DNA of 64,000 bases. Origin: an uncultured Actinomycetes bacterium. Its GTDB lineage: Bacteria > Actinomycetota > UBA4738 > HRBIN12. The stretch covers positions 43,762 to 107,761 of the forward strand of contig CAVSLG010000018.1 in the NCBI GenBank assembly GCA_963728665.1, given 5' to 3'. Shown in pieces: positions 10,719 to 47,639 of this stretch. The translations under genes were made by a program, and so were the position numbers. Under the pieces are notes generated by a model. The model ran no database searches. It was not told the origin of the DNA and saw only the letters and a list, made by a program, of their open reading frames with translations. Every line of letters starts with the position of its first letter. Within the stretch, counting starts at the first letter, position 1.

Positions 10719-13688
10719 GTGGTCGATGTCGGTGACATCGCTACAGGAGGTGCGGGTCGGCAGGCGGCTCGATCCGGATCCGTGTGGCGAGGATGCGCTG
10801 TAGTGCTGCTGCTGACGTGCGTGGCTTCGTGGCTGACGCCGATCTCCGACGCGGACGCGACCCCGCAGCCGGTCGGTGACGCACAAGCCACGGTGGAGAC
10901 GGCTCCTGTCGCGAACGCCGGCGACGCCGCCGACGATCCTGCGATCTGGCGTGATCCGGTCGACCCATCTCGGTCGATCGTGATCGGCAACGACAAGATG
11001 GGTGCGCTCGAGGTCTACGACATGTCCGGCGCGTTGATCCAGCGGTTCACGGGCGGGTTCTTCGGGAACGTCGACACGCGGACGGCGATGAGCACCGGAG
11101 TCGGGCTCGTCGACATCGCCGTCACCTACCGTCAGGGGATCCGGATCTTCGGGATCGATCCTGTCTCCCGGCAGCTGACGAACATCACTGACAACGCGGC
11201 GGGCAGCATCCCGTCACCGATCGGGGGAGAGGGGATCTGCCTGTACCGGGCCGCGGGCAGCGGGCAGATGTTCGTGTTCGTCAACGCTCGGGACGGCAGG
11301 GTTGCACAGTTCGGTCTCGACGATAGTGATGCCGACGGTCTCGTCGAGGGCACGGTGATCCGACAGTGGGATGTGGGGGCCGAGGTCGAGGGATGTGTCG
11401 CCGACGACCTGCTGGGGCGGCTCTACATCAGCGAGGAGACCCAGGCGATCTGGAGGTACGGCGCGGGGCCGTCGGACCCGACCGATGCCGGCTCACGCGT
11501 GGCCGTCGATCGCCCGATCGCCGCCGGGGGGCACTTCCGACCGGATGCGGAGGGGCTGACCATCGTGTATACGGCGGACGGCGGTGGCTACCTGATCGCA
11601 TCGTCGCAGGCGGCGTCTGACACCCTCAATTCCTACCTCGTGTTCGACCGTCTCGGTGGGAACGCGTTCATCCGCGAGTTCAGGGTCGTCGACGGGCCGA
11701 CCGTCGACGGCTGTGGCCGCACGGACGGTATCGATGCGCTCTCTGCGGACCTCGGGCCCGGCTTCCGCGAAGGTGTCTTCATATGCCAGGACAACAACAA
11801 CACGCTGCCCGGGAGCGTTGGGAACCAGAACTTCAAGTTCGTCCCGCTCGAGCGCGTTGTCGGCCTCCCGGACGGCGGGCCACCGCCCACTCCCGATACG
11901 GTCGTGATGGTGGTCAGCTCGCCCGCCGCCCTCATCAGCGGTGAGACCGCCGTCCGGGACCGACTCACCAACGCCGGGTACACGGTGTCGATCGTCGACG
12001 ACAACGCCGTGACGGCCGCCGACGCGAGCGGCGCCGCCTTCGTGTTCGTCTCTTCATCGGTCAACGATGCAACCGTAGGCACCAAGCTACGGCCCGTGCC
12101 TCAGCCGGTGTGGATGGCCAAGCCCTACTCCTTCGACAACATGCTGATGACCGGAACGTTGGCCAACGTGGACTACGGCACCATCAGCACGCAGACGATC
12201 GAGATCACCGACCCCAGCCATCCGCTGGCCGCGGGCAACAGTGGCTCGGTCAGCGTGACCCCGACGAACAAGACCAAGTCCTGGGGTGTGCCGGGTTCCG
12301 GGGCCGAGGTCGTGGCCACCGCGGGTGGAAGGGTCACGACCTTCGTATACCAAGCCGGTGATCAGCTCGTGGGCGGCGTGACCGCTCCTGGCTGTCGCCT
12401 GAGCTTCCCGGCCTTCCAGAATGGCCCGACGAGCTTTACCTCGGCCGCCTGGGCGATGTTCGATGCCACGGCCGCGTACGCGGCGTCGAACTGCGAGGAA
12501 ACACCGTCGGACCCCCTGCCCACCGTCTCTCTCACCGCCCCGGCGGATGGCGCGACTGTCAACGGAGCGGTCGCCTTGTCTGCGGATGCTTCCGATAACG
12601 AGGGCGTTGCTCGGGTCGAGTTCTTCGTCAGCGGGAACTCGGTCGGCGTCGACACCGACAGCATCGACGGATGGGGGGTCACCTGGGACTCCACGACTAG
12701 CGCAGATGGCGCCGCGACGGTGCGCGCGACCGTGACCGACACGGCCGATCAGACTTCAGATGATCAGATCGGCGTCACGATCGACAACCTCGGCCCCACC
12801 ATCGATCTGACCGCACCGACCAACGGAGCCACGGTCTCGGGTCCGGTCGTGAACGTGAACGCTACCGCCACCGACGCGGTTGGCCTGACTCAGGTCGAGT
12901 TCTCGGTCGACGGCACGTCGATCGGGGTCGATCAGAACGGTGGGAACGGGTGGTCGGCAACCTGGGATTCCACCGCTCACGCCGGGGGTCCGGCCACCGT
13001 CACGGCAACCGCAACCGACACGGCCGGCAGGACCGCGTCGGACTCCCACACGGTCACTGTCGACGATTCTTCCCCGGGAGCGGTGCTGATGGTCGTGGCA
13101 GATCCCAACATCATGGTCGCCGGTGAGGGGGCCGTGCTGAATCGTCTCGCGAACAACCTCGGCTTCTCAGTCGCGGTGATCGACGACAACCTGGTCGCAG
13201 CCGCCGACGCCAACGGCGCCGCCTTCGTCTTCGTCTCCTCGACCGTGAACGGTGGCGCGGTCGGGACGAAAATCCGCACCGTGACCCAGGCCGTCTGGGT
13301 GGCCAAACCCTACCTGCTCGACGACATGCTGATGACCGGGACCGTGGCCGACGTCGACTACGGCAGCGTCTCGTCGGCGTCGGTCGTCATCACGAACAAC
13401 GCCCATCCGCTGTCTGCGGGGTTGAGCGGGGCTGTCACCGTGACGATGTCGAATCACACGAAGTCTGTCGGCGTGCCGGGAGCAACGGCTGACGTTGTGG
13501 CGACCGCTGGCGGGAAGACCACGACGTTCGCCTACCAGGCAGGTGACCCACTCGTGGGAGGGAGCACGGCCCCCGGGTGCCGCCTGACCTCGTCGGCCTT
13601 CCAGAACGGACCGGCGAATTTCACCGCATCGGGGTGGGCGATGTTCGAGGCCGCTGCGCTCTATGCGGCGTCAGGGTGTGGCGGTTGA
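10719..13688 (+). CDS. Secreted beta-propeller phytase (3-phytase domain) fused to CTM - Ig-like pair - CTM. Intact 989-aa ORF.
   Basis: GTG start and signal peptide. BPP phytase hallmarks: DDPAIWRDPVDPSRSIVIGNDK...ALEVYDMSG...DGLVEG...DAEGLTIVY...FREGVFICQDN. Then a CTM (VVMVVSSPAALISGETAVRDRLTNAGYTVSIVDDNAVTAADASGAAFVFVSS...PGCRLSFPAFQNGPTSFTSAAWAMFDATAAYAASNC). Then two Ig-like domains (TVSLTAPADGATVNGAVALSADASDNEGVARVEFFV... and TIDLTAPTNGATVSGPVVNVNATATDAVGLTQVEF...). Then a second CTM ending ...AALYAASGCGG. Confidence 0.8.
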   Translation: MVDVGDIATGGAGRQAARSGSVWRGCAVVLLLTCVASWLTPISDADATPQPVGDAQATVETAPVANAGDAADDPAIWRDPVDPSRSIVIGNDKMGALEVYDMSGALIQRFTGGFFGNVDTRTAMSTGVGLVDIAVTYRQGIRIFGIDPVSRQLTNITDNAAGSIPSPIGGEGICLYRAAGSGQMFVFVNARDGRVAQFGLDDSDADGLVEGTVIRQWDVGAEVEGCVADDLLGRLYISEETQAIWRYGAGPSDPTDAGSRVAVDRPIAAGGHFRPDAEGLTIVYTADGGGYLIASSQAASDTLNSYLVFDRLGGNAFIREFRVVDGPTVDGCGRTDGIDALSADLGPGFREGVFICQDNNNTLPGSVGNQNFKFVPLERVVGLPDGGPPPTPDTVVMVVSSPAALISGETAVRDRLTNAGYTVSIVDDNAVTAADASGAAFVFVSSSVNDATVGTKLRPVPQPVWMAKPYSFDNMLMTGTLANVDYGTISTQTIEITDPSHPLAAGNSGSVSVTPTNKTKSWGVPGSGAEVVATAGGRVTTFVYQAGDQLVGGVTAPGCRLSFPAFQNGPTSFTSAAWAMFDATAAYAASNCEETPSDPLPTVSLTAPADGATVNGAVALSADASDNEGVARVEFFVSGNSVGVDTDSIDGWGVTWDSTTSADGAATVRATVTDTADQTSDDQIGVTIDNLGPTIDLTAPTNGATVSGPVVNVNATATDAVGLTQVEFSVDGTSIGVDQNGGNGWSATWDSTAHAGGPATVTATATDTAGRTASDSHTVTVDDSSPGAVLMVVADPNIMVAGEGAVLNRLANNLGFSVAVIDDNLVAAADANGAAFVFVSSTVNGGAVGTKIRTVTQAVWVAKPYLLDDMLMTGTVADVDYGSVSSASVVITNNAHPLSAGLSGAVTVTMSNHTKSVGVPGATADVVATAGGKTTTFAYQAGDPLVGGSTAPGCRLTSSAFQNGPANFTASGWAMFEAAALYAASGCGG

Positions 13689-13755
13689 CCGAGTCTCCGG
13701 GACACGGACGCGACGGGAGCGGGCGACAGTTCTTTCGGGCCGTTCTGAGTCCGTG

Positions 13756-14805
13756 ATGGCGCAGACCCGTTCGCGGCAACCGCTCGATGATGCTGGTCGA
13801 GTCGGCGTTGGAGCCGCTCCTCCTTCACGACCCTCAACGAGTCGGTGGACGCAGCCCGCTGCCTACGCCGCGGCGGTCCTTGTCGTGCTCGCGTTCGTCG
13901 CCGTCTTCTTCCGTGAAGGCGGTCCGCCCGCCGTCCTCATCCCCTCGTCCGGCGCCTACTTCGGAAGCTGGGTCGCTCCCCGTGCCGGTGAGTCTCGCGC
14001 CGATGCGATCGTGCGGGTGGAGTCCCAGATCGGGCGTCGATTCGCGATCGACCATCAGTACTACAAGTGGGACTCGAACTTCCCCGGTGCCCACGAGACC
14101 TGGACGGTCTCCGAGGGGCGGATCCCGTTCATGAACTGGAAGGCGGAGCGGACCAACGGCCAGGTGATCACCTGGAGCAGGATCGCCTCCGGCGCCGAGG
14201 ACGCCGCGATCATCGCGAGGGCCGACGCGATCGAGGCGTTCGGGGTGCCCGTCTACCTCACGTTCCATCACGAGCCCGAGGACGACCTCGCGACCTGGGG
14301 CACCCCCGCCGAGTACGCCGCCGCGTTCCGGCACGTGGTCGACGTCTTCCGCGCACAGGGCGTGGATAACGTCGCGTTCGTCTGGACGATGATGGCCTGG
14401 ACGTTCGATCCTCGCTCGGGCAAGCCGATCGACGACTACTACCCGGGCAACGCCCACGTCGATCTGATCGGCAGCGACGGGTACAACTTCTACCCCGGCA
14501 AGGCCGGCGCCAACTGGGATTCCTTCAAGACCGTGTACCAGCCCACCCAGGACTACGCGGTGCGCCACGGCAAGCCGTGGATGGCCGTGGAGTGGGGAAC
14601 GCAGGAAGACCCGGCGGTCCCGGGTCGCAAGGGCCAGTGGATCGTCGACTCCCTTGCGGTGGCCAAGACCTGGCCCGATCTCAAGGGGCTGATCTACTTC
14701 GACGAGATCAAGGATGGCTATACGTGGATCACCGATAGCTCGGCCTCGTCGACGGCCGGCTTCGCCGAGATCGGGGCCGATGCGTACTTGGATCCTGAGG
14801 GGTAG
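13756..14805 (+). CDS. Secreted or membrane-anchored GH26-like TIM-barrel glycoside hydrolase (beta-mannanase family-like). Standalone copy A of the repeated catalytic cassette.
   Basis: N-terminal hydrophobic anchor AAYAAAVLVVLAFVAVFF. Candidate catalytic glutamates in VYLTFHHEPEDD and PWMAVEWG. About 90% identical at the protein level to the catalytic domains at 33.2, 44.0 and 46.7 kb. Confidence 0.6.
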   Translation: MAQTRSRQPLDDAGRVGVGAAPPSRPSTSRWTQPAAYAAAVLVVLAFVAVFFREGGPPAVLIPSSGAYFGSWVAPRAGESRADAIVRVESQIGRRFAIDHQYYKWDSNFPGAHETWTVSEGRIPFMNWKAERTNGQVITWSRIASGAEDAAIIARADAIEAFGVPVYLTFHHEPEDDLATWGTPAEYAAAFRHVVDVFRAQGVDNVAFVWTMMAWTFDPRSGKPIDDYYPGNAHVDLIGSDGYNFYPGKAGANWDSFKTVYQPTQDYAVRHGKPWMAVEWGTQEDPAVPGRKGQWIVDSLAVAKTWPDLKGLIYFDEIKDGYTWITDSSASSTAGFAEIGADAYLDPEG

Positions 14806-14872
14806 CTTTCCATGGCCTTCGAGCGGTCGATCCATAGCATCGACGGCCCAGGGAGGCATCGGCGCTCGTCGG

Positions 14873-15796
14873 TCAACGAGGATCGTCCGCACGACGGATG
14901 CGTTCGGAGAGCCAGTATTCGACGACGCCGGTCAAGTACCCGGCCGCGGCGAGGAGGATGCCTGCGCCGAGACAGGCGATCCGCAGGAGGCCCCCGAGAT
15001 CGCCGCGCCGAACCTGCCGAGACTCGCGGCGCAGTCCTTGGCTGAGCGCGACGGCGACGAACCTTCGATCTGCGTCGAGACCGGTCCTCGGAAGGTTCCG
15101 GTGAGCCGCGACCTTGCCTCGGTTGACGAAGAAACACCGGCGCCAGAAGTATCTCCACGTCAGCCGATCGGGGGACACGTAATGCCGCGCGACGGCCCTC
15201 GGCTCGAACAGGATCTGCCTGTCCGGCCAACGATGTGCGAGCCGGTGACACATGTCCATGTCGTCGTGGTTGTCGGAATGGAAGTAACCGATCTGCCGAA
15301 GAGCGTCGCTCTTGACCGACATCACTGCCCCGATCAGCCGAGGCGTGCGCGCCAGCTTCGTCGGCAGCCCCGCGTACACGCATCCGAAGACCCAATCGAA
15401 CTCGTGCGGGAACCACACGGGACGAGGTCGTGAGTAGACGGGCATCGGTGCACCCCCAACCGCCACGACGGATGGGTCCAGGTATGGCGCCTGCAAACGT
15501 TCGAGTAGATCCGGTTCGGCGCGAGCGTCATCATCGAGGAAGACGAGGATGTCACCCCGCGCCACCTCAGCCGCAGTTCTTCGTGCCGACCCCAGGCGAC
15601 CACCGTGGCGGTTCGGGATGACGCTGATCGGGACAGTTGCCTCTCCTCGGATGAGGTCGGTGTCGAGCGCACGCTGCAGCATCTCGTCGTTGTGGTCGAT
15701 GCACACGATGATCTCGAGCGGCGGTGCGGTCTGCGTCGTCAACGACTCAACGGATTCGAGGAAGAGTGACCACCGATCGAGCGTGTAGGCGCACAC
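14873..15796 (-). CDS. Family 2 glycosyltransferase (GT2)
   Basis: CAYTLDRW...EIIVCIDHNDEM...DILVFLDDDARAEPD...(DxD) and a C-terminal TM segment. GT-A fold signatures. Confidence 0.7.
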   Translation of the reverse strand: MCAYTLDRWSLFLESVESLTTQTAPPLEIIVCIDHNDEMLQRALDTDLIRGEATVPISVIPNRHGGRLGSARRTAAEVARGDILVFLDDDARAEPDLLERLQAPYLDPSVVAVGGAPMPVYSRPRPVWFPHEFDWVFGCVYAGLPTKLARTPRLIGAVMSVKSDALRQIGYFHSDNHDDMDMCHRLAHRWPDRQILFEPRAVARHYVSPDRLTWRYFWRRCFFVNRGKVAAHRNLPRTGLDADRRFVAVALSQGLRRESRQVRRGDLGGLLRIACLGAGILLAAAGYLTGVVEYWLSERIRRADDPR

Positions 15797-16727
15797 GATC
15801 GCGAGACATGCTCACAGCACCCGCTTCGACCAACAGAATCCCTTCCTGCCTATCTTTCGCACGGGGCACAACCTCGAACGCTCGCAGAGGGACGCCGAGG
15901 GCCTCCAGTTCGGCTCGGCCCGGGACGCCGGGAGCGGGACGGATCAGCCCGAGCAGCGAGTCGGCTCTGAACGGCAGAGTGAAGGGGAGAAGCTCCGCGA
16001 GGCGCATCGTCGCGTATAACGGCTGCCAGGGTACGGGGACGAAGCGACACGTGCGACCATCCCAAGACGCCAACGTCGAGAGCAGGTCGCGGAAATCGAC
16101 GGGATCGGGATTGGCAACGCCGACCGGCCGGGTCGGAGCCTCCGTCGCTTCGGCCGCCGCGGTGACCACCGCGACGAAGTCCTCCTGGTGCACGGTGTAC
16201 TGGCGCATCTCGCCGATGGGAACGGGAACCAGCGGGAGTCGCACCAACCTCCTCAACAAGGCGATCATGCCGCCCGCTCTCTCTCCGAACACGAGGCCAG
16301 GCCGGAGCACCCAACCACCGATCTGCAACGTCGCTGCCTCGATCGCGAGCTTGGCTCGCCCGTACAGCTGAGTCGTGCCTTCGTATGCCGACATACTCGA
16401 GAGCACGATGACGCGAGGGACCTCGGCCGCCGAGGCGGCGCGAAGCAGCCTCCGGGTCCCTCCGATGTTCACTCTCTTGATGTCCGAGGGGCGAGTCAGC
16501 GTGAGGTCGTAGGCGCAGTGGATGAGCACATCCACGCCAGCGAGCAAGCCCTCGTCGCACGGGGCCGCCAAGTCGAACTGCCGAGCCTCGCCGTCACCCT
16601 GAACCGTCGAGCGAACGAGCGATATCGAACGCCACCCCGAGGTGCTCAGTGATCGGCGGATCAGGCCTCCGAGGTAGCCGTGCGCTCCGGTGATCGCCAC
16701 GGTCCTCTGTGCTCCCTCTGTCGTCAT
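15747..16727 (-). CDS. NAD-dependent epimerase/dehydratase (extended SDR)
   Basis: N-terminal VAITGAHGYLGGLIRRSL (GxxGxxG Rossmann). YGRAK resembles the YxxxK catalytic dyad. Overlaps the downstream GT2 start by 50 bp. Confidence 0.7.
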   Translation of the reverse strand: MTTEGAQRTVAITGAHGYLGGLIRRSLSTSGWRSISLVRSTVQGDGEARQFDLAAPCDEGLLAGVDVLIHCAYDLTLTRPSDIKRVNIGGTRRLLRAASAAEVPRVIVLSSMSAYEGTTQLYGRAKLAIEAATLQIGGWVLRPGLVFGERAGGMIALLRRLVRLPLVPVPIGEMRQYTVHQEDFVAVVTAAAEATEAPTRPVGVANPDPVDFRDLLSTLASWDGRTCRFVPVPWQPLYATMRLAELLPFTLPFRADSLLGLIRPAPGVPGRAELEALGVPLRAFEVVPRAKDRQEGILLVEAGAVSMSRDRVRLHARSVVTLPRIR

Positions 16728-18322
16728 CGGTAGAGGTCCAGCGATCGACTCGCGATGCGATGGGCATTGGCCATGATCGTCAGCGTGAAGGTCGTTGCCG
16801 GGATGTTAGGAAAGGTGGCGGCGTCGACCAAGTGGATCCGCTCCCGGGGAGCGGTCTGCCGAGCAGATCGCTTCCGAGCCTCGTCACCGGCTTCTCCTGA
16901 TGAGGGAAGCTGCCTCCGAAGTGGTAGCTCTTCGCACCGCCCGAGAACACGACGTATGGCATCACAGGCCACAGATCGAGGTGGCGAGCCGAGCGGATGA
17001 CACGCGCGAACACGGCCCGCAGCATCTGGTTCTCACGCCAACGGACCTCCTCCCTTCGGATCTGGAAGGGGGGAGGGCGCCTTCTGTCACGGGTGCGCGG
17101 ATCTGCAGTCGAAGGCTCGGTGAGGCCCACGACGGCAGGTACCCGAGCGCCACTGAGAATCGCCGGAGGAGCTGGTCCCTCGCGGGGCGAGAGGCACGGT
17201 GACGAAGGAATGCCGGGAGCCCGTCCTCGAACGCTGGGTCATAGGTATAGAAGTGAAGCAGCGATAGGTCGACTCCGCCACCGCCTGGGCTCACCAACAT
17301 GTTGAACTGGTTGAGCGTGAACTGGGGTTCGACCCTGGGGTCGGTGGCGGTCGGGGTCAGGCTGAAGAACGGCAGAGCGAACTGAGCGGCTTCGTAGAGT
17401 CGGATCGTCGAATCGAACAGCCCCAGCGAGTGTGCGGCGATCCGCGTGGAACCGATCGCGCCGCATGCGATGTAGACACGGTCTGCCTCGAAACGTCGAA
17501 TGCGGTCCGACCCACGCTCCTGCGCCCAGACGAACGCACGCCCATCATCTTCCCCGACTCGCGCCGCCAGAAGGTCACCGAGGTAGGTGATCCGTCCGGC
17601 GAGTCGCAGCCGGTCGATGGTCGAGGAAGCAGAATAGATGAGCGAGTATGGACACCCGGTCATACACAAGCCGCATCGGACGCAGGCGGAGGCCTCGAAG
17701 GCGAGTCTCGCTCGTCCGACGGTGACGCCGTGTCGTGCGAGTTTCGTGCGGTTGGCTGCGTAGTTGCGCAGGACTTGAGCGGTCCTGTCGGATGGGCTCG
17801 GCAGGGGGGTCGGCACGCCGATCAACGGGAAGAGCTCCGCGAGATCGTCCTCTTCCCCCGCCAGCGGCACCTCATCCAGGATCGCCCGATAGTGCGGTTC
17901 CATCTCCGCTGCTGAGATCGGCCACGTATCGAACGTTGCCTCGGTGAACGGCATGACCTGAGATCCCCATACGTTGCTGAAGCCCCCATATGCCCCTGAC
18001 ACCAAGGCCCGATTCACGTCGGGGCTCGGGCTGATGTCTCGGAGCTGTCCCGTGTCCCGGAAGGGGAAGTCGGAGCCGTAGGCTGCTTCTCGGGGATGCC
18101 CTTCACGCCCGAATCGACCGGTCGGGCCGAGACTTGTGAGAGCTTCAACGGATCCCACCCATCCTGCGTTTGGGTAGAGAGCTCGTCGACGATCGCGCGA
18201 CGATCTTGCTCCAGCCGCAGGCCGAGATCGATCACTGTGATCTGGAGGTCGCTCCGCTGGGAGAGCGCCATGGCTGCGCCAGCAGCCGCCGGTCCCGAAC
18301 CGATCACCAAGGCACTGGTCAT
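16724..18322 (-). CDS. GMC-type FAD-dependent oxidoreductase. At least 2 frameshifts.
   Basis: N-terminal MTSALVIGSGPAAAGAAMAL (FAD binding; frame 18014..18700). Central body in frame 16962..18158. GMC C-terminal signature IHLVDAATFPNIPATTFTLTIMANAHRIA in frame 16724..16972. Confidence 0.55.
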
Positions 18323-18405
18323 CGCAACCCCAGGTGTCCAGCGACCCCCGGGCGATCGCGGTCCCGAGGTCTGCTGAGGACGCTGAGGAACCTGCCGGCG
18401 TCGGG

Positions 18406-19413
18406 TCACGTCAGCGAGCAACCGATGCCGAGCCGCCGGCTTTCGTCTCGAACCAACTGAAAGGTCTCCGAGGAGGTCGGCGAGTGCACGGTTCGGTTCA
18501 TCGAACGACCCTGCAAGAAAGCGCGCGCTGCGGCCGACATGGGGTCGTAGCTGTGGGCGTTCTTCGTCGGGTAGCTCTTGAGTGCGTGGTCCGGCAACCC
18601 GAGGAAGGTGAGCACGTCGCGGTAGGCACGCTGGGGTTGAGCGAAGAAGTCGCCACTGTCCACGATGAGCATCTGGCTCCGCGAGAGATGGCTCAGCCAT
18701 CGTCGCAGTTGGTCGACGTATATCCCGCGGGCGACGTACGAGTGGTGTTGATGCTCTTCACTATGGTAATTGGGATCCGCGGACAATCGCTCGGCCTCCC
18801 CTGCGAGGCGTTCACCCTCCATCCTCAATGCGTCCTCGAACGGCAACGTCTCGTAGCCTCGTTCCACTTCGTGCCGATACTGGGAGTAGGCCTGCGCAAC
18901 CGGGTCTCGGAGCATCACGATGATCCGCACGTTCGGGAGTGTACTCGCGACCCTGGGGGGAACGTTCGGGTGGAGGAGGTAGTAGGGGCTGCTCTCTCCC
19001 GTGAGCGTTCGATGGTCGGCTCGTCTCGACACGAGCGACCTGTATCGACGGGTTGGGAAGTGGGACGCGTACCAGCTGTCGCCTCGTTCGTAGTTGACGT
19101 CGAAGTAGTGAACGCCCTTGCAAAGGACAGCCGGAACGACGGCGGGGTGCTGCGACAGGTAGGTGTACATCGACGTGGTCCCGCAGCGCTGTGCGCCGAT
19201 GATGAGGAAGTCCGGCAGGTCTCGGTATCGATGCGTCGCGGCTGTGATGCCGCGAGAAGCCCTCCAGAGGGTTCTATGCGCTCCTTTCAGGATGCCGGTC
19301 GGCAGGCTCATGTTCCGAGGGACTCGTACCGGCCTTCGTCGGCGAGCGGTACCGTTACGCTGGGAGTCGAACCCCTCAGACGTTCCCTCACGATCGTGCG
19401 CAACACCCGCCAT
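18406..19413 (-). CDS. PAPS-dependent carbohydrate sulfotransferase (second copy; intact ORF)
   Basis: LPDFLIIGAQRCGTTSMYTYL (5'-PSB) and RIIVMLRDPVAQAYSQY (3'-PB). A likely start is M at about 19311 (MSLPTGILKG). Confidence 0.7.
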   Translation of the reverse strand: MAGVAHDREGTSEGFDSQRNGTARRRRPVRVPRNMSLPTGILKGAHRTLWRASRGITAATHRYRDLPDFLIIGAQRCGTTSMYTYLSQHPAVVPAVLCKGVHYFDVNYERGDSWYASHFPTRRYRSLVSRRADHRTLTGESSPYYLLHPNVPPRVASTLPNVRIIVMLRDPVAQAYSQYRHEVERGYETLPFEDALRMEGERLAGEAERLSADPNYHSEEHQHHSYVARGIYVDQLRRWLSHLSRSQMLIVDSGDFFAQPQRAYRDVLTFLGLPDHALKSYPTKNAHSYDPMSAAARAFLQGRSMNRTVHSPTSSETFQLVRDESRRLGIGCSLT

Positions 19414-19428
19414 CCATCGGGGATTGCT

Positions 19429-20229
19429 TCAGGTTCTCACTCCAGAGATCCTCGCGTGTTCATAACTCGGGACCTCTGCGACGCGGATGCGAGCCTTCGC
19501 GAGTCGAACGTTCATCAATGTCTCCACCTCGAACCCGTCGCAGTCGACATTGAGATGCGGCAAGCATTCAACGAGGAAGGCATTGTAGCCGTAGCAGAGG
19601 TCTGAGTAGCTGCTCCGGAAGAGGAGGTTGACCAGGCGGGTCAAGACAGCGTTGCAAGCCCTGCGCACACCCGTTATGTCTTGGCTCCCACCTCCCTTGG
19701 CAAAACGCGTCCCCCTTCGCGAATTGCGCACCTTGCGACAACGCATCGAGGAACTTCGGGATCTCGCCGATCGGCGGACCCGTCCGCATCAGCATCACGA
19801 TGATGTCTCGGTCGTGGCCCTGAAGCCAGCGGCCAGGGCGTTGCCCTTCCCTTTGCCGACCTGCTGCACCACCCGCACGCGGGGACAGAGCCTCCTGGCC
19901 ACCTCGATGGTCTCGTCGCTCGATCTGCCGTCAACGAGCACGACTTCATCGACGACCGCCGGTAGGAGCGGGAGGATGAATCGGAGGTTGTCAGCTTCGT
20001 TCATGGCTGGGATGACGACGCTTACGGTCGGTTTGATACTCCTCACCGGGGGTGGCTCAGCGTGCGCAGTCGCCACTGGGTGAGGGGATCCCTCAATCGA
20101 ATACAGAGGACGTGGTACGTGGCCTTGCGATCTTGCCGGAACCTGCATCTGCGCCGACCTCCGTCGTGCCCAATGACCATGCTCGTATGGTTCGGATGCC
20201 CTCCCCCGTTTGGGGGATGCCTTATCCAC
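19429..20229 (-). CDS. GT2 polyprenyl-phosphate sugar synthase-like glycosyltransferase (DPM1/GtrB-like). One frameshift near 19780.
   Basis: N-terminal half TVSVVIPAMNEADNLRFILPLL...EVVLVDGRSSDETIEVARR...QVGKGKGNALAAGF (frame 19795..20229). C-terminal half YGYNAFLVECLPHLNVDCDGFEVETLMNVRLAKARIRVAEVP (frame 19429..19746). Confidence 0.55.
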
Positions 20230-20268
20230 ACTAGCTGGTAGCTGCTCGCGAGGTCAACACGCCACAGG

Positions 20269-21230: not shown

Positions 21231-21499
21231 CATTGACGAACAGATCCGGCCCCGGGCACGATGCGGCGATGCATGGACCACGATCAGGCGCTGGAGCTAT
21301 TACGTGGCCATGTTCTGGGAGCGGTCCTCGTGCACCAGGAGCTCTTTCGTCCGTCGTGGGTTCGGGGCGGCAGGCCTGCTGCGCCGCAACAGCGAAGCCT
21401 ACGTGTTGATGTCGTTCCTGCCACTCGGATCTGTTGGGGGCGACGCAGAACCCAGCGGTCGCGCCGGCGAGTCGAGATCGGCCCATCGTCGGGGGGTCA

Positions 21500-38170: not shown

Positions 38171-41100
38171 ATGCGATTTCGCACAATAGCTCAATACCGG
38201 CCACGAGGTCAGGCGTTTCGCAACCGCACCGCCCCCTTCCTTTTCGTTGCGCTTCTCTCTCTGGCTTTGGTAGCAGTCGGGTTGATCCCTGTCGCCGAGG
38301 CACAAGTCATCCTCCCCGATGAATACTCTGCGGCCACCATCGTGGTGGGTCTCAGCGACGGTAGGGATATCGTGGCGGCACCCGATGGGCGAATGTTTGT
38401 CGCTCTGGGTACCGGCCAGATTCGTGTGATTCAGAACGACGCGCTCTTGTCTCAGCCGTTGCTGGCCATCCCGGTCGGCAGCGGTGGGAACAAGGGGCTT
38501 CACACGCTCGCCCTTGACTCGGCGTTCTCGCAGAACGGGTACCTGTACGCCGTCTACACACCCATGGGGACTGACTTCAATCGGCTGTCACGGTTCACGG
38601 TCGTGGGCAACACGGCCAACCTGAATTCGGAGTTCAGGATCATGGACCTTCCGCCCCTGGAGGGTGCGCCTTCTCACTACGGCGGTGCTGTCGTCGACCT
38701 GGGGGACGGCACGCTCCTCGTGACAGTGGGGGATCACGAGAGAGCATCGAACGGACAGAACCTCAACGTATTAACCGGCAAGGCGCTACGCATCAACAAG
38801 GACGGGACGATTCCTCCCGACAACCCCTATGTGGGCAGTTCAACCATCGACCATAGGATCTACGCGCACGGTTTCCGAAACCCATGGCAAGCGGCGCTCC
38901 AGCGGAGCACCGGCCGAGTCGTCATCAGTGATGTTGGCTCGTCCCTGTGGGAGGAAGTCAACGTCCTCGCTTCCGGCGCGGACTACGGGTGGGCGGACGT
39001 TGAAGGCCCGGGAGGCCCCGGGACAGAGCCGTTGTTCGCCTACCCGCATTTCGGGCTGATCCCGGGCGCTCCATTCGAGGGATGTGCGGTGACCGGAGGG
39101 ACGTTTTACGAGCCTGATGTGGTGCAGCTACCGAGCCGATTCGTTGGGCGCCTCTTTGTGGGCGACCTCTGCAGTGGGTGGATCGCGTCTGTTGATCCAG
39201 AGACCGGCGAGGCGGAGGCTTTCGCCTCCGGATTCGATTCCCTCGCTGATCTCGCGACGAACCCAACCAATGGGGCCTTGTATGCCCTCGATCGCAACCT
39301 TGTGGACAACCGGAGCGGCATCATCAAGATCGAGTACATCGGTGGAAACGCCACGCTGCGCATCACCTCTCAACCGACCTCCCAACGGCTCGCCATCGGC
39401 CAGCGGGCATCCTTCTTCGTGGGTGCTGTTGGACAGGGCGATCTCCATTATCAGTGGCAGCGCGATGGAGTCGACATCCCAGGTGCCAACTCACCAACAT
39501 ATGTCGTTGATCCGGTGGCCCAGCCGATGACGGTGCCCAGTTCCGGGCGGTCGTGTCAGACGACGTCGGCCAAGTGACGAGTTCTGTGGCGGAGATCATC
39601 GTCACGGACAACCATGCTCCCCAGCCTTTCATCACTAAACCACCGGTAGGCAAGACCTACGGGGGAGGGGAGCAGATCACGCTCGTCGGCGGAGCGAACG
39701 ACGAAGAGGACGGTGTACTCAGCGAGACGGCCCTGACTTGGGAGGTTCGCCTAAGTCACGACGGGCATGACCATGGATTCACAGGAGAGATCGTTGGCAC
39801 TGGACAGTTCACCATCACGATTCCCCGCAGCGGAGAGACATCAGACGATGTCTGGTACACGGTCTACCTGACCGCCGAAGACGCCGATGGGGCGTCTACC
39901 ACGGTGGTGAGGACCATACAGCCGCGAAAGGTATCCATCCAGTTCAACACCTCACCATCTGGGGGTGTCCTCAATATCGATGGCCCGTCTCAAGCCACCC
40001 CGCATCAGGTGGTCGGTGTAGAAGGTGTCTTCCGGGAGCTGCGGGCGCCGAGGGTGCAGGAGTTCGGCGGGGAGCCTCACGGGTTCGTGCGATGGAGTGA
40101 CAATGGCTCAAGGGAGCACACGTTCGTTACCCCGGCCATCAATGCGTCACTGACGGCCCAGTATTCACCTTTGCCATTCGGTCAAGGCGCGACTCCCACG
40201 TGCTTCGTGGCACCTATGGACGATTCAGCCGTTGTCACCTTCTCCGGCAGCCTTGGCAGCTCCGTCAATCTTCGCCGCGATGGTCGTTGGATACAGACCG
40301 TGACGGGTTTCGAATACTACGTTGATGGCGATTCTCCTCTGCCGAACGCCGCATACTCGATCCGTGTTCGGGCGAATGGAGTGACGACCGACTATCCATG
40401 CTCCGGAGTTCAGTGGCCACCCGAAGGCGAACCACCTCCACCGTCCGGTACCGTGCTGATGGTCGTGGCCGACCCGAACTCCCTGCTCGCCGGTGAGACC
40501 GCGGTGCGCAACCGACTCACGAACGACGGCTACACGGTCTCCTTGATCGACGACAACGTCGTCGCGGCCGCCGATGCCAACGGCGCCGCGTTCGTCTTCA
40601 TCTCCTCGACCGTGAACGCCAACGTCGTGGGGACGAAGCTGCGCGACGTGCCCCAACCCGTCTGGACGGCCAAGCCCTATCTGCTCGACGACATGCGGAT
40701 GACCGGCACGGTGGCCGACGTCGACTACGGCTCGGTCACATCGGCCTCGATCGTGATCACCAATGCCGCACACCCGCTGGCGGGTGGACAGAACGGGACC
40801 GTGGCGATCACGACCTCGAACCACGTGAAGTCCTTCGGGATCCCCGGCGCGGGCGCAGAGACGGTCGCCACGGCCGCCGGCAAGGTGACGACCTTCGTCT
40901 ACCAGGCCGGTGACCAGCTCGTCGGTGGCACCACCGCACCGGGCTGTCGGCTGACCTCGTCGGCCAACCAGAACGGGCCGGCGAACTTCACCGCCGCCGG
41001 CTGGACGATGTTCGAGGCTGCCGCCGACTACGCGGCGGCGAACTGTCAGACCGGGCCACCTCCACCGGACGAAAACCCGACCGTCGACCTGACGTCGCCG

Positions 41101-41958
41101 AACGATGGCGCCACCGTCAGTGGCATCGTGAACATGACCGCGACTGCCTCCGACGCCGAGGGCCTCACCCAGGTCGAGTTCATGGTCGACGGCACCTCGA
41201 TCGGTGTCGACACGAACGGTGGGAACGGGTGGTCGGTCCAGTGGAATACGACGACGCACCCGGATGGTGCCGCGACGGTGGTCGCCACCGCGACCGACAC
41301 CGCCAACAAGACGGCGACCGATCAGGTGTCGGTGACGGTCGACAACTCGTCCCCGGGCACCGTGCTGATGGTCGTGGCCGACCCGAACTCCCTGCTCGCC
41401 GGTGAGACCGCGGTGCGCAACCGACTCACGAACGACGGCTACACGGTCTCCTTGATCGACGACAACGTCGTCGCGGCCGCCGATGCCAACGGCGCCGCGT
41501 TCGTCTTCATCTCCTCGACCGTGAACGCCAACGTCGTGGGGACGAAGCTGCGTGACGTGCCCCAACCCGTCTGGACGGCCAAGCCCTATCTGCTCGACGA
41601 CATGCGGATGACCGGCACGGTGGCCGACGTCGACTACGGCTCGGTCACATCGGCCTCGATCGTGATCACCAATGCCGCACACCCGCTGGCGGGTGGACAG
41701 AACGGGACCGTGGCGATCACGACCTCGAACCACGGGAAGTCCTTCGGGATCCCCGGCGCGGGCGCAGAGACGGTCGCCACGGCCGCCGGCAAGGTGACGA
41801 CCTTCGTCTACCAGGCCGGTGACCAGCTCGTCGGTGGCACCACCGCACCGGGCTGTCGGCTGACCTCGTCGGCGTTCCAGAACGGGCCGGCGAACTTCAC
41901 CGCCGCCGGATGGACGATGTTCGAGGCTGCCGCCGACTACTTGGCGGCAAGCTGCTAG
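38171..41958 (+). CDS. Secreted PQQ-dependent sugar dehydrogenase-like (soluble glucose/sorbosone dehydrogenase fold) beta-propeller protein with Ig-like domains and two CTM copies. One frameshift near 39560.
   Basis: SD ggagggaagg plus ATG. Signal/TM FLFVALLSLALVAVGLIPVAEA. GSDH-family motifs (LSDGRDIVAAPDGRMFVA, SHYGGAVVDLGDGTLLVTVGDHE, ALRINKDGTIPPDNPY, IYAHGFRNPW, YGWADVEGPGGPG). Ig-like domains. First CTM (40440-41040). Ig-like domain. Second CTM (41340-41955). Confidence 0.75.
41075..41950. repeat. Second copy of the about 0.9 kb Ig-like + CTM DNA repeat (see 37050..37945)
   Basis: Same evidence as copy 1. The offset is 4045 bp. Confidence 0.75.
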
Positions 41959-42026: not shown

Positions 42027-43034
42027 CTATCCTCTTAGGTCAAAGAATGGGTCGGACGCCATCGCAGCGAAGGCGTTCGTGGCGGTGTCGGATGAATCTA
42101 CCGGCCAGCTGCAGCCTGGTTTCGCGGGGTTGATGGTCTGGAAGTAGAGCACCATCTTGACGCGGCGAAACGCCCTCTTCTTCAGTTGCCGGCGAGCGTC
42201 CCGGATCCACTCTGCCTTCCGCCCCGGATCGGTGGGGTCCTCTGTGCTGCCCCACTCAGGCAGGACGATCGGCTTCCCTGGGTGGTCCTTCGCCCAGGAA
42301 CGGATCGGGACGATCTTTTCGCGGAAGGTCTGCCAGGGTCGGCCGGACACCGAACAGTCAGCAGAGTTGTAGAGATCGGCACCGATGACATCGACGAAGT
42401 CGTCGCCGGGGTACCAGTAGTTGGCTGCACGCTCGTCTGTCGTCTCGAAGGCCCAGTCGGTCATCGTCCAAGTCCAACTGACGTTCCGGACTTCCTGCTG
42501 ACGGAACACCTGCACGAAGTTGCGCCATGCCGCGACGAAATCGGACGATGAACCCAAGGCGTCGTTGGCTTGTGACTCCGGCTCATGGTTGAAGATGAGG
42601 TAGATGTGCTTATCGAACGCCCGAACGCGCCGGGCCCAATCCATCATCGTCGCGTGAATATCCGAACCTGGTGCGGCATCGGCCACCGAGCGCCACGGCA
42701 CGATGGACCCATCCTGGCGCACTGATTTCACACTCAGAACTATGGTTCGATTCTTGCGCTTGAGCCACTTGACGTGGTCGTTCGGGAACTGACTGTCCCA
42801 CTTCAAGTAGACCCGAGTGGCCCGAAGCCTCTGGCCGATCATGCGCTCGAAGCGACGTTGGGCATCAACGAGGGATCCACCCGCGTTGTCCTGGACGAAG
42901 GCGCCCAGGACTGCTCCTCTCCCCGAGAGCCGATCGTCGGCGCGGGCGGTCGGTCCGAAGGCGGTCACCACGACCGCGATGATTGAAATGAGGGCCAGGG
43001 CGCCTCGGGGCGGGGTCCGGATCTCGTTCTCCAT
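42027..43034 (-). CDS. Secreted GH26-like glycoside hydrolase; divergent standalone paralog
   Basis: Signal peptide GALALISIIAVVVTAFGPTARA. It has the same catalytic signature as the cassette family (IYLIFNHEPESQ ... PIVLPEWGSTEDP) at about 35-40% identity. Confidence 0.65.
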   Translation of the reverse strand: MENEIRTPPRGALALISIIAVVVTAFGPTARADDRLSGRGAVLGAFVQDNAGGSLVDAQRRFERMIGQRLRATRVYLKWDSQFPNDHVKWLKRKNRTIVLSVKSVRQDGSIVPWRSVADAAPGSDIHATMMDWARRVRAFDKHIYLIFNHEPESQANDALGSSSDFVAAWRNFVQVFRQQEVRNVSWTWTMTDWAFETTDERAANYWYPGDDFVDVIGADLYNSADCSVSGRPWQTFREKIVPIRSWAKDHPGKPIVLPEWGSTEDPTDPGRKAEWIRDARRQLKKRAFRRVKMVLYFQTINPAKPGCSWPVDSSDTATNAFAAMASDPFFDLRG

Positions 43035-43182: not shown

Positions 43183-44958
43183 TCAGGGCCCGAGGTAGGA
43201 GTCTCGTGAGACGCCTGGCTCGTCTGTCCAGAAGGTGAAGGAGGACGTGGCCCTGCCGGAGCGGCCGATCTGCACCACATCGACTGCCTGCCCGATCCGC
43301 TGTCCAGAACGAGACCGCACGATCTCGGATGGGACCTGAATGTCCCCGTCAAACACCATCATTTCGATCGTCCCTGAGACGTGATCCGATGACCATTCGA
43401 TACGCAGCCAGCCGCGAGTCCAGATCGGCTCCGAGGTTCTGAGAACCACCTCTCCCTTTCGATCGCGGGCGCGGAGGTCGCCTCCAGGGGTGATCTCGAT
43501 AGAGACGCTTGTCGCGCCCTTGTGTTTGGCCCGAACGAGTTGGAGCGGTTCCTTTGGCGCTCGAGGAAGCCAGACGTAGAAGCGTCCGAACCAACGATCG
43601 CTGACTCCGAAGGAGTGTCCGTATTCGTAGAAGGCATTCTCGCCAGGGCCGGCCTCGTGCTTGGCGGCAAGCCCGGAGTGCGCACGTCTCGAGTCGTAGA
43701 TCAAGCTCGCCCCGCGCTCGGCCTTGACCGAATCAAAGGCTGACCCGCTGGCGCCACCGCTGTTCGCGCGCGTGATGCCTTCCCCTGGCGACCCTCCGTC
43801 GAGTGAGTTGGTGAGGGGGCTAGGGCTAGGGCTAGGGCTAGGGCTAGGGCTAGGGCTAGGGCTAGGGCTAGGGCTAGGGCTAGGGCTAGGGCTAGGGCTA
43901 GGGCTAGGGCTAGGGCTAGGGCTAGGGCTAGGGCTAGGGCTAGGGAATGGCCTTCCACTCAGATGACCATCGGCCCCCATCTGCGCGTAGCCGGCCATCG
44001 ATGAGGATGAGCTGTCGGTGATCCAGGGCCTGCCGTCCTTGATCTCGTCGAAGTAGATCAGTCCCTTGAGCTCGGGCCAGGTCTTGGCGGTCGCGAGCGC
44101 GTCGATGATCCACTGGCCCTTGCGACCGGGGACCGCCGGATCTTCCTGCGCTCCCCACTCCACCGCCATCCAGGGCTTGGCGTGTCGAACGGCGAAGTCC
44201 TGGGTCGGTTGGAAGACGGTCTGGAAGGAGTTCCACGTGGATCCGGGCTTCGTGGGGTAGAAGTTGTAGCCGTCGCTGCCGATCAGGTCGACGTGGGCGT
44301 CGCCCGGGTAGTAGTCCTCGATCGGCTTGCCTGAGCGAGGATCGAACGTCCAGGCCATCATCGTCCAGACGAACGCGACGTTATCCACGCCCTGTGCGCG
44401 GAAGACGTCGACCACGTGCCGGAACGCGGCGGCGTACTCGGCGGGGGTGCCCCAGGTCGCGAGGTCGTCCTCGGGCTCGTGATGCAGAGAGAGGTAGACG
44501 GGCACCCCGAACGCCTCGATCGCATCCGCCCTCGCGATGATCGCCGCGTCTTCGGCCCCAGAGGCGATCCTGGACCACGTGATCGCCTGACCGTTCTGGC
44601 GCTGCGCCTTCCAGTTCAAGAACGGGATCCGCCCCTGGCCCACCGTCCAGGCCTCGTGGGCCCCGGGGAAGTTCGAGTCCCACTTGTAGTACTGATGGTC
44701 GATCGCGAACCGACGCCCGATCTGGGACTCCACCCGCACGATCGCGTCGGCGCGAGACTCACCGGCACGGGGAGCGACCCAGCTCCCGAAGTAGGCGCCG
44801 GACGAGGGGATGAGGACGGCGGGAGGACCGACGGGAGCGGCGCTCACCGCCGTCGGGGCGACCAGGCCCGAGGCGAGCGCCATGCACGAGAGTAGCGCGA
44901 CGACGGTCTTCCCCAGCGAACCTGCAGAGAGCCGTGGAATGGACGAGGGGGTTGCCAT
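43183..44958 (-). CDS. Secreted GH26-like glycoside hydrolase (cassette copy C), then a (Pro-Ser)21 linker and a C-terminal beta-sandwich (lectin/ConA-like?) domain
   Basis: Signal peptide TVVALLSCMALASGLVAPTAVSA. The catalytic domain is identical to copies B and D. A PSPSPS... run precedes a 190-aa C-terminal domain (WFGRFYVWLP...WLRIEWSSDHVSGTIEMMVFDGD...). Confidence 0.7.
   Translation of the reverse strand: MATPSSIPRLSAGSLGKTVVALLSCMALASGLVAPTAVSAAPVGPPAVLIPSSGAYFGSWVAPRAGESRADAIVRVESQIGRRFAIDHQYYKWDSNFPGAHEAWTVGQGRIPFLNWKAQRQNGQAITWSRIASGAEDAAIIARADAIEAFGVPVYLSLHHEPEDDLATWGTPAEYAAAFRHVVDVFRAQGVDNVAFVWTMMAWTFDPRSGKPIEDYYPGDAHVDLIGSDGYNFYPTKPGSTWNSFQTVFQPTQDFAVRHAKPWMAVEWGAQEDPAVPGRKGQWIIDALATAKTWPELKGLIYFDEIKDGRPWITDSSSSSMAGYAQMGADGHLSGRPFPSPSPSPSPSPSPSPSPSPSPSPSPSPSPSPSPSPSPSPSPSPLTNSLDGGSPGEGITRANSGGASGSAFDSVKAERGASLIYDSRRAHSGLAAKHEAGPGENAFYEYGHSFGVSDRWFGRFYVWLPRAPKEPLQLVRAKHKGATSVSIEITPGGDLRARDRKGEVVLRTSEPIWTRGWLRIEWSSDHVSGTIEMMVFDGDIQVPSEIVRSRSGQRIGQAVDVVQIGRSGRATSSFTFWTDEPGVSRDSYLGP
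43817..43942. repeat. Perfect hexanucleotide microsatellite (GGGCTA)21, which is (TAGCCC)21 on the coding strand. It encodes the (Pro-Ser)21 linker.
   Basis: Read directly from the sequence: 126 bp of uninterrupted GGGCTA units. Confidence 0.95.
43975..44805. repeat. About 0.83 kb GH26-like cassette DNA repeat, copy C
   Basis: See copy B. Confidence 0.8.
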
Positions 44959-45234
44959 GCGGAGTGCCTCCCTCGCCTGCCTGGCGGGGACGGGACAACC
45001 TCGCATCCCCCTGAGTCAGGCAGACGAACCAGTCGGGGTATGAATCGGCGTGCGGGCTGGGGATGCTTGAGTGGGGCGATAGGGCGCTCTTTGGACCCCC
45101 CATCCAGGGGACAGACATGAGCGAGATGAGGCTGGACGATGTCTGGCAGGGACGCACGGTAGGACGTTTCCACGTGTGAGACGGAGAGAAGACGACGTCG
45201 CCTACCGATTTCCGCGAAGGACGGCACTACTGTT

Positions 45235-45558: not shown

Positions 45559-45710
45559 CGCGAGGCGGATCGGCTTCTCGGCGCTAGGGGCCGAACCGAC
45601 CGACGAATGGCAACTCCAGTGATCTTGCCGCGCCCTACATTCCTCCGCGCATCGATGAGCTGCGCGATCTGGGTCGAGCGCCGTCCTTCATCATGACGAG
45701 ATGGACGTCC

Positions 45711-47639
45711 TCAGTTCGTTGAGCAGCCCGATGATGCGAACGCCACTGCAGCGTCGAACATCTCCCAAGCAGCAGTCGTGAAACTCACCGGTCCGTCTCG
45801 GAACACTGAAGACGACAAGCGACAGCCCCTCGCGGGACCGCCCCCCACCAACAGATCGCCAGCTTGGTAGACGAATGTGGTGGGCTTGCCGGCCACGGTC
45901 GCGATAACGTCCGCCGAGGGGCGAGGAAGGCCGAACGACTTCGTCCTGTTCTCCGGGGTCGTGAGGACCGTTCCCCGTTTGCCAGCGGCGAGCACGTGAG
46001 TTTCGTTCTCGACGACGATCGAGGGCGACGACACCGTGCCGTACTCGACGCTCGGGCATCGCCCTCGTCATCAGCATGTCGTCCAGGGCGTAGGGTTTCG
46101 CGACCCACACCGGATGCGGCACATCGCGCAGCTTCGAACCCAGGACACGGCTGTCGATCGTCGACATCACCATCACGAAGGCCGCGCCATCCGCATCGGA
46201 TGCCTGCACCGCGTTGTCGTCGACGGCCGCCACTGTGTATCCGCTGACCGAGAGTCGATCGACGACGGCAACCTCACCCCGGATCAAGCGGCTCGGGACT
46301 CCGACCACCATGACGACGTTCCCCAGCTCGGTCTCCACGATGACTTCGGCGCTATCGGACGCGGATTGGCCGAGTCGTGTCAGTCGCCAACACCGATACA
46401 GTTCGCAGGTCCATCGGTGGCAGTGGCAGCGTTCCACTCGAGGGTCCACCCGTCGGTGCCGTCCGAGTCAACTCCGATCAGGACGCCGTCGACGTAGAAA
46501 TCGACTCGCTGCACGGCCACGTCGTCAGCCGCGTCGGCGCTGATCGTTACCGTACCGCTGAGGATGTCACCGTCAGCCGGCGAAATCAGCGAGACGGTCG
46601 GCCGCTGGTCAGGAACGGGCACCGGACTTGGGCTCACGCTCAGGTACGCATCGGCCCCCATCTGCGCGTAGCCGGCCATCGATGAGGATGAGCTGTCGGT
46701 GATCCAGGGCCTGCCGTCCTTGATCTCGTCGAAGTAGATCAGTCCCTTGAGCTCGGGCCAGGTCTTGGCGGTCGCGAGCGCGTCGATGATCCACTGGCCC
46801 TTGCGACCGGGGACCGCCGGATCTTCCTGCGCTCCCCACTCCACCGCCATCCAGGGCTTGGCGTGTCGAACGGCGAAGTCCTGGGTCGGTTGGAAGACGG
46901 TCTGGAAGGAGTTCCACGTGGATCCGGGCTTCGTGGGGTAGAAGTTGTAGCCGTCGCTGCCGATCAGGTCGACGTGGGCGTCGCCCGGGTAGTAGTCCTC
47001 GATCGGCTTGCCTGAGCGAGGATCGAACGTCCAGGCCATCATCGTCCAGACGAACGCGACGTTATCCACGCCCTGTGCGCGGAAGACGTCGACCACGTGC
47101 CGGAACGCGGCGGCGTACTCGGCGGGGGTGCCCCAGGTCGCGAGGTCGTCCTCGGGCTCGTGATGCAGAGAGAGGTAGACGGGCACCCCGAACGCCTCGA
47201 TCGCATCCGCCCTCGCGATGATCGCCGCGTCTTCGGCCCCAGAGGCGATCCTGGACCACGTGATCGCCTGACCGTTCTGGCGCTGCGCCTTCCAGTTCAA
47301 GAACGGGATCCGCCCCTGGCCCACCGTCCAGGCCTCGTGGGCCCCGGGGAAGTTCGAGTCCCACTTGTAGTACTGATGGTCGATCGCGAACCGACGCCCG
47401 ATCTGGGACTCCACCCGCACGATCGCGTCGGCGCGAGACTCACCGGCACGGGGAGCGACCCAGCTCCCGAAGTAGGCACCGGACGAGGGGATGAGGACGG
47501 CGGGCGGGGGAGCCGCCCGCGATGCCCCGGAGAACAGGCCTTGAGTGAGCGCGAGGGAGACGAGGGTCGCAGACAGGAAGAGTGCGAAAGACGCTCGCGG
47601 TCTCATCGACCGCGGCTCGCGACGTTGCGTGGAACTCAT
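45711..47639 (-). CDS. Secreted GH26-like glycoside hydrolase (cassette copy D) followed by an Ig-like domain and CTM. The C-terminal part has frameshifts (possible pseudogene).
   Basis: Signal peptide ASFALFLSATLVSLALTQG. The catalytic domain is identical to B and C. Then Ig-like (PTVSLISPADGDILSGTVTISADAADDVAVQRVDFYV...). The CTM is split between frames 45691..46449 (...LIRGEVAVVDRLSVSGYTVAAVDDNAVQASDADGAAFVMVMST...) and 45711..46034 (...GCRLSSSVFRDGPVSFTTAAWEMFDAAVAFASSGCSTN). Confidence 0.6.
46656..47486. repeat. About 0.83 kb GH26-like cassette DNA repeat, copy D
   Basis: See copy B. Confidence 0.8.

Follow-up and report, generated by a model that had tools for sequence, protein, structure and literature searches.

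A repeated extracellular domain with a predicted glutamine-amidotransferase-like fold in the mosaic exoproteins of an uncultured actinomycete

RESULTS

CTM copies and their carrier proteins

The stretch of DNA analysed here (64000 nucleotides, referred to throughout as the window) comes from an uncultured Actinomycetes bacterium and encodes, between positions 10719 and 47639, a series of large secreted proteins sharing a domain of approximately 200 amino acids, which we call the CTM (conserved C-terminal module). Both a tblastn search with one CTM and a family HMM (hidden Markov model) run on the six-frame translation gave exactly eight copies in six signal-peptide proteins, and their E-values of 1e-60 to 1e-134 exclude chance. 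An earlier note on this DNA had listed seven such proteins; the shared module is real, but there are six carriers, two of which (A and E) have two copies each, so that the CTM is also found internally, and its description as C-terminal holds for proteins B, C, D and G and for the last copies of A and E. The seven intact copies are 54–100% identical and have 83 invariant columns, among them both of the cysteine residues discussed below.

Translation of the large ORFs (open reading frames) showed signal-peptide-like N-termini on all of the carrier proteins. Their heads are unrelated to one another and, as the earlier note had named them, were each recognized by Pfam: a BPP phytase (PF02333, 3e-70), two delta-60 propellers (DUF5122), one of them combined with malectin (3e-16), a GSDH (glucose/sorbosone dehydrogenase) propeller (PF07995, 1e-44) and two GH26-like domains (Glyco_hydro_26, approximately 1e-7, partial). 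The Ig-like domains, which usually lie upstream of the CTM, are Big_7 according to the same database (2.8e-30 in protein A) and were confirmed before the C-terminal CTMs. Protein A (10719–13688, + strand) consists of the signal peptide, the BPP phytase, a first CTM (11895–12503), two Big_7 domains and a second CTM (13077–13685), as assigned by Pfam, tblastn and HMM. Protein B (28250–31318, +) has a signal peptide, a DUF5122/delta-60 propeller region, two Big_7 domains and a C-terminal CTM (30713–31315), and protein C (32012–34420, −) combines a signal peptide and GH26-like head with two Big_7 domains and a C-terminal CTM (32015–32623). In protein D (34582–37949, +), which is one gene in two ORFs, the signal peptide is followed by the propeller, malectin, Big_7 and a C-terminal CTM (37335–37946). 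Protein E (38171–41958, +) contains a signal peptide, the GSDH propeller, an Ig-like region, a CTM (40447–41055), Big_7 and a further CTM (41356–41955), and protein G (45711–47639, −) contains a signal peptide, a GH26-like head, Big_7 and a CTM (45723–46323) that is frameshifted near 46065.

To judge from DNA comparison, modules undergo shuffling within the window. The Ig+CTM cassettes of D and E are 98.5–100% identical, and one pair, 41075–41948 in E and 37054–37927 in D, has 100% DNA identity over 874 bp. Similarly, the GH26 cassettes of C, F and G have 99.5% DNA identity, and a fourth copy is 90% identical to them. The same GH26 head is thereby found with three endings, namely an Ig-Ig-CTM tail, an unrelated tail or a membrane anchor without a tail. 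The unrelated tail belongs to protein F (43183–45006, −), in which the head found in C and G is followed by a (Pro-Ser)n linker and approximately 210 residues that differ from the Ig+CTM tails, as the earlier note had claimed, and include no CTM. The anchored form is the fourth copy (13663–14805, +), a GH26-like paralogue that has no Ig or CTM tail but is anchored by a transmembrane segment at its N-terminus. One head with alternative endings is the pattern expected if the tails were alternative localization devices.

The linker of protein F is encoded by a perfect (GGGCTA)×21.5 repeat at 43817–43945. Searches of Pfam and the PDB with its tail (43183–43815, −) gave no match, and homologous tails follow GH26 genes in two of four related Acidimicrobiia-type loci (L004 and L005, the others being L001 and L010). 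A diverged GH26-like secreted protein without a CTM (42027–43034, −) also has an orthologue in L004. The propeller heads of D (34582–35979) and B (28250–29800) belong to an abundant family, with 2912 matches at E ≤ 1e-10. Most of these relatives are Actinomycetes proteins of approximately 630 amino acids without Big_7 or CTM annotation, which suggests that secreted proteins of this clade existed first and acquired the CTM later.

Size and distribution of the family

An exhaustive HMMER search over 1.84 billion cluster representatives, using a profile built from the window CTM copies, returned 3303 clusters (50% identity) at E ≤ 1e-3, 2216 at E ≤ 1e-10 and 430 at E ≤ 1e-30. The CTM belongs to a very large extracellular family, found across several phyla, for which neither Pfam nor NCBIfam has a model. 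The idea that the module is peculiar to this locus is thus not borne out, as the window copies are a single subtype within a family that numbers at least 3303 clusters at 50% identity and whose domains may occupy any position in the protein. A word-index homologue search had given 11 fragments, or 27 with a profile, and would have described a rare domain; this description was rejected on the result of the exhaustive search, the word-index search being a strong undercount that missed the window's own proteins too. In a scan of our genome collection with the window CTM alignment only three loci were found, and the nearest match in that collection is L001, from an uncultured Acidimicrobiia MAG (metagenome-assembled genome).

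For a domain census we sampled 158 proteins, comprising 147 new representatives from the HMMER search and the 11 close fragments, and located 428 family domains, with a maximum of nine in one protein. The copies lie directly behind the signal peptide (dozens of members begin in this way), internally or at the C-terminus, and the linkers between them cluster at approximately 0–10, 100 and 190 residues. Pfam analysis of 50 representatives identified as partner domains PKD, Big_7, Phosphodiest/Metalloenzyme/Sulfatase, GDSL, GH26 and Phytase, and in addition Alginate_lyase2, BNR_4, CBM5_12, PA14, VWA, TSP3, fn3 and a T9SS (type IX secretion system) sorting tail; one example from the Bacteroidota combines the family domain with SdrD_B, PKD and dockerin domains. 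Source databases label the family proteins ‘hypothetical’.

The CTM gave no sequence match in Pfam, NCBIfam or the PDB, whether one sequence or a profile served as the query, in agreement with the earlier note, which had found no name for it. No Pfam model covered the CTM region in 60 full-length members or in 50 isolated domains, the latter searched at E ≤ 10, and at this threshold the 50 domains showed no consistent weak family, one member having a match to DUF4350 (E = 0.069). The literature on secreted ThuA-like or GATase1-like (class I glutamine amidotransferase-like) domains and on CBM (carbohydrate-binding module) domains contained no description of the family that we could find, the only relevant paper being that on Agd3 and CBM87. 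The apparent novelty lies in the sequence family itself, in how large it is and in its deployment outside the cell as a mobile module in repeated copies. The fold described below is already known, as are glycan-associated accessory domains built on it, so that our finding extends an existing category and does not found a new one.

Predicted fold and conserved residues

AlphaFold2 modelling from the seven window copies alone gave a pLDDT (predicted local-distance difference test score) of only 38.6, and a deeper family alignment was needed. With 49 diverse family domains added, the model reached a pLDDT of 97.4 and a pTM (predicted template modelling score) of 0.93 and shows an alpha/beta/alpha domain with a central, mostly parallel sheet, as in the class I GATase fold, so that the alpha/beta fold suspected from the sequence was obtained. 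The best structural matches of the model are ThuA-like proteins (fold of PDB 1T0B and 4JQS), and the structure matches also include accessory domains of glycan-processing enzymes in which the same fold recurs. The CTM is accordingly modelled as an autonomous extracellular domain of approximately 200 residues with a class I GATase/ThuA-like alpha/beta/alpha fold. The earlier suggestion of ThuA/GATase1 likeness therefore stands at the level of the predicted fold, but not as a sequence relationship, because no ThuA or GATase model matched any of the 50 domains at E ≤ 10.

Across 300 full-length domains, a single residue is near-invariant, Arg168 (295/300). Other conserved positions are Asp81 (246), Asp82 (206), His109 (246), Trp130 (232) and Tyr152 (270), and in addition Gly131, Pro133, Glu/Asp153, Gly155 and Trp195. 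Position 76, which follows the strand at 72–74 and lies at the register of the nucleophile elbow, is glutamate in 184 and lysine in 49 of the 300 domains and is never cysteine; this register was taken from the predicted secondary structure together with the GATase motif P-x-x-G-x-C after strand 4, and not from a superposition. No conserved histidine or glutamate follows the last strand (168–170) in the 300 domains, and when the profile was aligned with TrpG, a marginal match (E = 0.13), the columns opposite the catalytic His-Pro-Glu (HPE) were unconserved ones. Judged by register, the Cys-His-Glu triad appears to have been lost, none being evident. Pfam GATase and Peptidase_C26 models gave no match in the window proteins or in the 50 family domains (E ≤ 10), and the same search recovered the window's GuaA at 1.9e-47; comparison of the family profile with the GATase domain of this GuaA by hhalign gave a probability of 0.4%, i.e. 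no relation. The CTM is acidic, with a net charge of −5 to −7 and a pI of approximately 4.5.

Two subtypes and paired cysteine residues

Positions 76 and 167 co-vary, with Glu/Arg (ER type) in 163 domains and Lys/Cys (KC type) in 45. All 45 of the domains with Cys167 also carry Lys76 and a cysteine within the last eight residues, and the window copies are of this KC subtype (Lys76, Cys167 and terminal cysteine). The pairing of cysteines pointed out in the earlier note is thus strict (45/45), which supports a disulfide, and Cys167 is probably bonded to the cysteine at the end of the domain, with the caveat that the KC subtype may be a single clade. This Acidimicrobiia subtype with its probable disulfide appears to be undescribed. 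The last copy lies at the extreme C-terminus in 19 of 28 KC-type proteins, compared with 38 of 113 of the ER type.

The adjacent glycan locus

Between the phytase gene and the other CTM genes lies a glycan biosynthesis locus (14873–27918, −), which encodes two GT2 glycosyltransferases, an NAD epimerase, a Fer4 protein, two or three sulfotransferases and proteins without a Pfam match; the sulfotransferase/GT2/epimerase cluster reported earlier at 14.9–27.9 kb is indeed present. In the related loci L001, L004, L005 and L010, homologues of the locus genes have as neighbours phytase, propeller, GSDH or GH26 genes that carry a CTM, but none was detected within 10 kb of the family members at four loci elsewhere (L002, L006, L007 and L009), so that the proposed co-occurrence of CTM and glycan locus holds for the first group and was not seen in the second. 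Such synteny is compatible with a functional link and equally with shared ancestry. Two of the locus proteins without a Pfam match (26488–27918 and 25701–26684, both −) are 55–70% identical with counterparts beside CTM genes in L001 and L004, and the former is also kept, more weakly (34% identity), in L005.

DISCUSSION

Comparison with known systems

The closest functional precedent for the CTM, by analogy, would be CBM87. Its founder is the N-terminal domain of Agd3 from Aspergillus fumigatus (PDB 6NWZ), a glycan binder with a GATase1 fold that lacks the triad and has 3RHT and 4JQS as its nearest structures. The CTM shares the predicted GATase1/ThuA-like fold, the absence of an evident triad and the same two nearest structures. 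However, CBM87 is one N-terminal domain of a CE18 deacetylase, whereas the CTM is promiscuous, occurring in one to nine copies with many types of head.

ThuA is a stand-alone protein encoded beside a ThuB-type Gfo/Idh/MocA oxidoreductase in a sugar-utilization operon. The fold of the ThuA-like proteins (PF06283; 1T0B, 4JQS and 4E5V) is shared with the CTM model, but sequence identity is only 7–10%. The ThuA HMM (PF06283) found nothing in the 50 domains at E ≤ 10, in the 60 full-length members at stricter cut-offs or in the window proteins at E ≤ 0.01, and the family profile at E ≤ 10 found no ThuA-like chain in the PDB. In contrast with ThuA, the CTM is in the window always a fused domain of signal-peptide proteins, and no Gfo/Idh/MocA gene was present among the neighbouring window genes scanned. 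The class I GATases (GuaA, TrpG, PabA and HisH) have a triad of cysteine and His-x-Glu, whereas the CTM, which is extracellular, has glutamate or lysine at the register of the cysteine and lacks the His-x-Glu. The GATase1-like domains of GH42 (domain B), the GH35 enzyme CsxA, GH164, GH29, LNBP and the GIFT group (IFT52 and OST48/WBP1) are each fixed within one architecture; unlike these, the CTM is mobile and occurs in repeat arrays, and Ig domains connect it to heads of unrelated kinds. SLH repeats (PF00395) had no match in any window protein and their fold is unrelated to that of the CTM, leaving a purely functional analogy.

Proposed function of the CTM

We propose, with about an even chance of being right, that the CTM is a non-catalytic ligand-binding (CBM-type) or retention module. 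Its extracellular location, its promiscuous fusion and its repetition with Ig or PKD spacers follow the grammar of CBMs and adhesins and not that of an enzyme; despite the apparent lack of a triad, several polar and aromatic positions have stayed conserved, and we assign them to loops at, or close to, the fold's canonical ligand edge; enzymes that process glycans also have accessory domains of this fold; and CBM87 of Agd3 offers an experimental precedent with this fold and without the triad. As its ligand, we consider a polysaccharide or some other polymer outside the cell most likely; it would be contacted through Glu/Lys76, Asp81-Asp82, His109, Trp130, Tyr152 and Arg168, which predicted secondary structure and the canonical fold place on or near loops that border the central sheet at its C-terminal edge. 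Secreted proteins of several phyla use the family as a shuffled accessory module, either appended to hydrolases or in tandem arrays with Ig/PKD spacers. Binding would direct an enzyme that carries the module towards a matrix containing its substrate or keep it at the cell surface, with multiple copies providing avidity.

Several points weigh against this proposal. The strong conservation of charged residues (Arg168 98%, Asp81 82% and His109 82%) would fit an enzyme too, and the family profile did not match Agd3/CBM87 (residues 141–364) at E ≤ 10. As CAZy families are defined by sequence, this lack of a detectable relationship also means that the CTM is not a member of CBM87. Moreover, the change from Glu76/Arg167 to Lys76/Cys167 may have been one evolutionary event, which would make it weak evidence for a contact, and the phosphatase and dehydrogenase heads have non-polymer substrates, for which surface retention fits better than substrate targeting.

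A more specific version of binding goes back to the earlier note: in these Acidimicrobiia the CTM would recognize the product of the neighbouring GT2/sulfotransferase locus, a sulfated polysaccharide, and tether the exoenzymes to the cell's own envelope or EPS (extracellular polysaccharide), in the way that SLH domains hold on to secondary cell-wall polymers. The genes for GT2a, GT2b, the proteins at 26488 and 25701 and the sulfotransferases adjoin CTM genes in the window and in L001, L004, L005 and L010, the KC-type domain so often forms the extreme C-terminus (19/28 proteins), the GH26 paralogue that lacks a CTM has a membrane anchor instead, and the phytase and GSDH heads act on small molecules, which favours retention over targeting. 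However, these syntenic loci come from related genomes and the linkage may be plain inheritance, an acidic domain (pI ~4.5) is poorly suited to general polyanion binding, and copies are also internal or N-terminal, those of the Bacteroidota even occurring in proteins that already bear a T9SS anchor signal. Together with the absence of locus homologues near the members at L002, L006, L007 and L009, the acidity of the domain makes tethering to a self-made glycan a live but minority version of binding, possible and in our view rather doubtful.

Non-catalytic roles that need no external ligand are improbable. A CTM that self-associates or acts as a rigid spacer, as domain B does in the GH42 trimer, would not be expected to keep Arg168, Asp81/Asp82, His109, Trp130 and Tyr152 at 25–40% identity; in addition, nine copies in one chain speak against a defined oligomer interface, and the unrelated heads have no known need to oligomerize. 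Slightly less probable again is a cryptic enzyme, or a redox or accessory subunit, in which the Glu/Lys76-His109-Tyr152-Arg168 site would catalyse a reaction or assist sugar dehydrogenases as ThuA does with ThuB. Charged residues are conserved where the fold normally has its active-site edge or, by register, close to it, ThuA-like proteins are the top structural match and fusions to GSDH propellers recur (protein E of the window, L004 and L006), as the earlier note had anticipated. Against this, there is no evident triad and no ThuA/GATase1-like Pfam match at E ≤ 10 in 50 members, the partners are mostly not dehydrogenases, tandem arrays of five to nine copies are typical of binding modules and not of enzymes, and the putative elbow residue is glutamate in one subtype and lysine in the other.

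If the CTM does bind glycans, it would form a second CBM family on a GATase1-type fold that is not a beta-sandwich, beside CBM87. We would go only tentatively as far as the full picture, in which the family is an undescribed and widespread binding class on the GATase fold (Actinomycetota, Bacteroidota and others), with, in the Acidimicrobiia, a dedicated system of KC-type domains and glycan locus by which exoenzymes that scavenge phosphorus and glycans are held on a sulfated matrix of the cell's own making. Were this true, it would help explain how phytase, phosphodiesterase-type, GH26 and sugar-dehydrogenase exoenzymes of soil Acidimicrobiia stay near the cell, with a bearing on phosphorus and carbon turnover. 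Whatever its ligand, at least 3300 clusters (50% identity) of secreted or surface proteins share a domain that has no Pfam or NCBIfam model, and a family definition would improve the annotation of many large environmental exoproteins.

Assembly and setting of the window

Genes D, E and G are each broken into several ORFs by frameshifts, which lie in D at a G7 run (35949–35955), in E near 39530–39577 and in G at 46065–46450, where there are at least three. The protein encoded by the first of the two ORFs of D, frameshift included, is 100% identical with a deposited protein, P0194, from a 341587-bp NCBI/ENA contig. The close relatives all come from ENA metagenome assemblies that are rich in frameshifts, and those of the window are for this reason probably sequencing errors; gene G is either a pseudogene or a poorly assembled stretch. 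That the repeated cassettes and mosaic genes as a whole arose by misassembly of a noisy long-read metagenome is hardly credible, despite these frameshifts (one of them in a homopolymer), cassettes of 99.5–100% identity and an assembly of a near-identical strain (L010) that has 176 gap openings across 12 kb and a different junction, as the CTM copies of A, B and C differ (54–83% identity) and so are not collapsed repeats, and independent assemblies, as well as thousands of unrelated proteins, show the same architectures.

L010 is ENA contig_114078 (38143 bp), a second and noisier assembly from a strain approximately 95% identical with the window. Its positions 1–13984 fuse window 46392–48113 straight on to window 9996–22233. 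The interval between the breakpoints at ~9996 and 48113 measures 38118 bp in the window, nearly the length of the contig, and the 10-bp sequence ACGAACGGCT is present on the outer side of both (9990–9999 and 48114–48123). The contig may be chimeric, or it may correspond to the entire exoenzyme/glycan island as a circular unit or as the unit of a tandem duplication.

The G+C content of the window ranges from 61 to 72%, and its housekeeping genes encode GroEL, a Glu/Leu-type dehydrogenase, IMPDH, GuaA and PcrA. In the exoenzyme and glycan region (14000–50000) the G+C fraction is 0.61–0.67, compared with 0.68–0.72 in the housekeeping flanks, which is compatible with an acquired or fast-evolving island.

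Two further repeats were seen in the window. Five near-perfect 35-nt units (GCGCTCAAGTACCGAAGGGGTAGCGCATGATCGAC) are arranged in tandem at 48647–48820; this array, for which an Rfam search gave no match, continues as diverged copies to ~48612–48855. Every unit contains a GCGCT...AGCGC hairpin, and the array lies directly upstream of the Phosphodiest gene (48813–50210), overlapping its start. In addition, among weak phytase-like ORFs, 5856–6092 and 6103–6338 form an adjacent direct duplication of approximately 237 bp with 89% identity.

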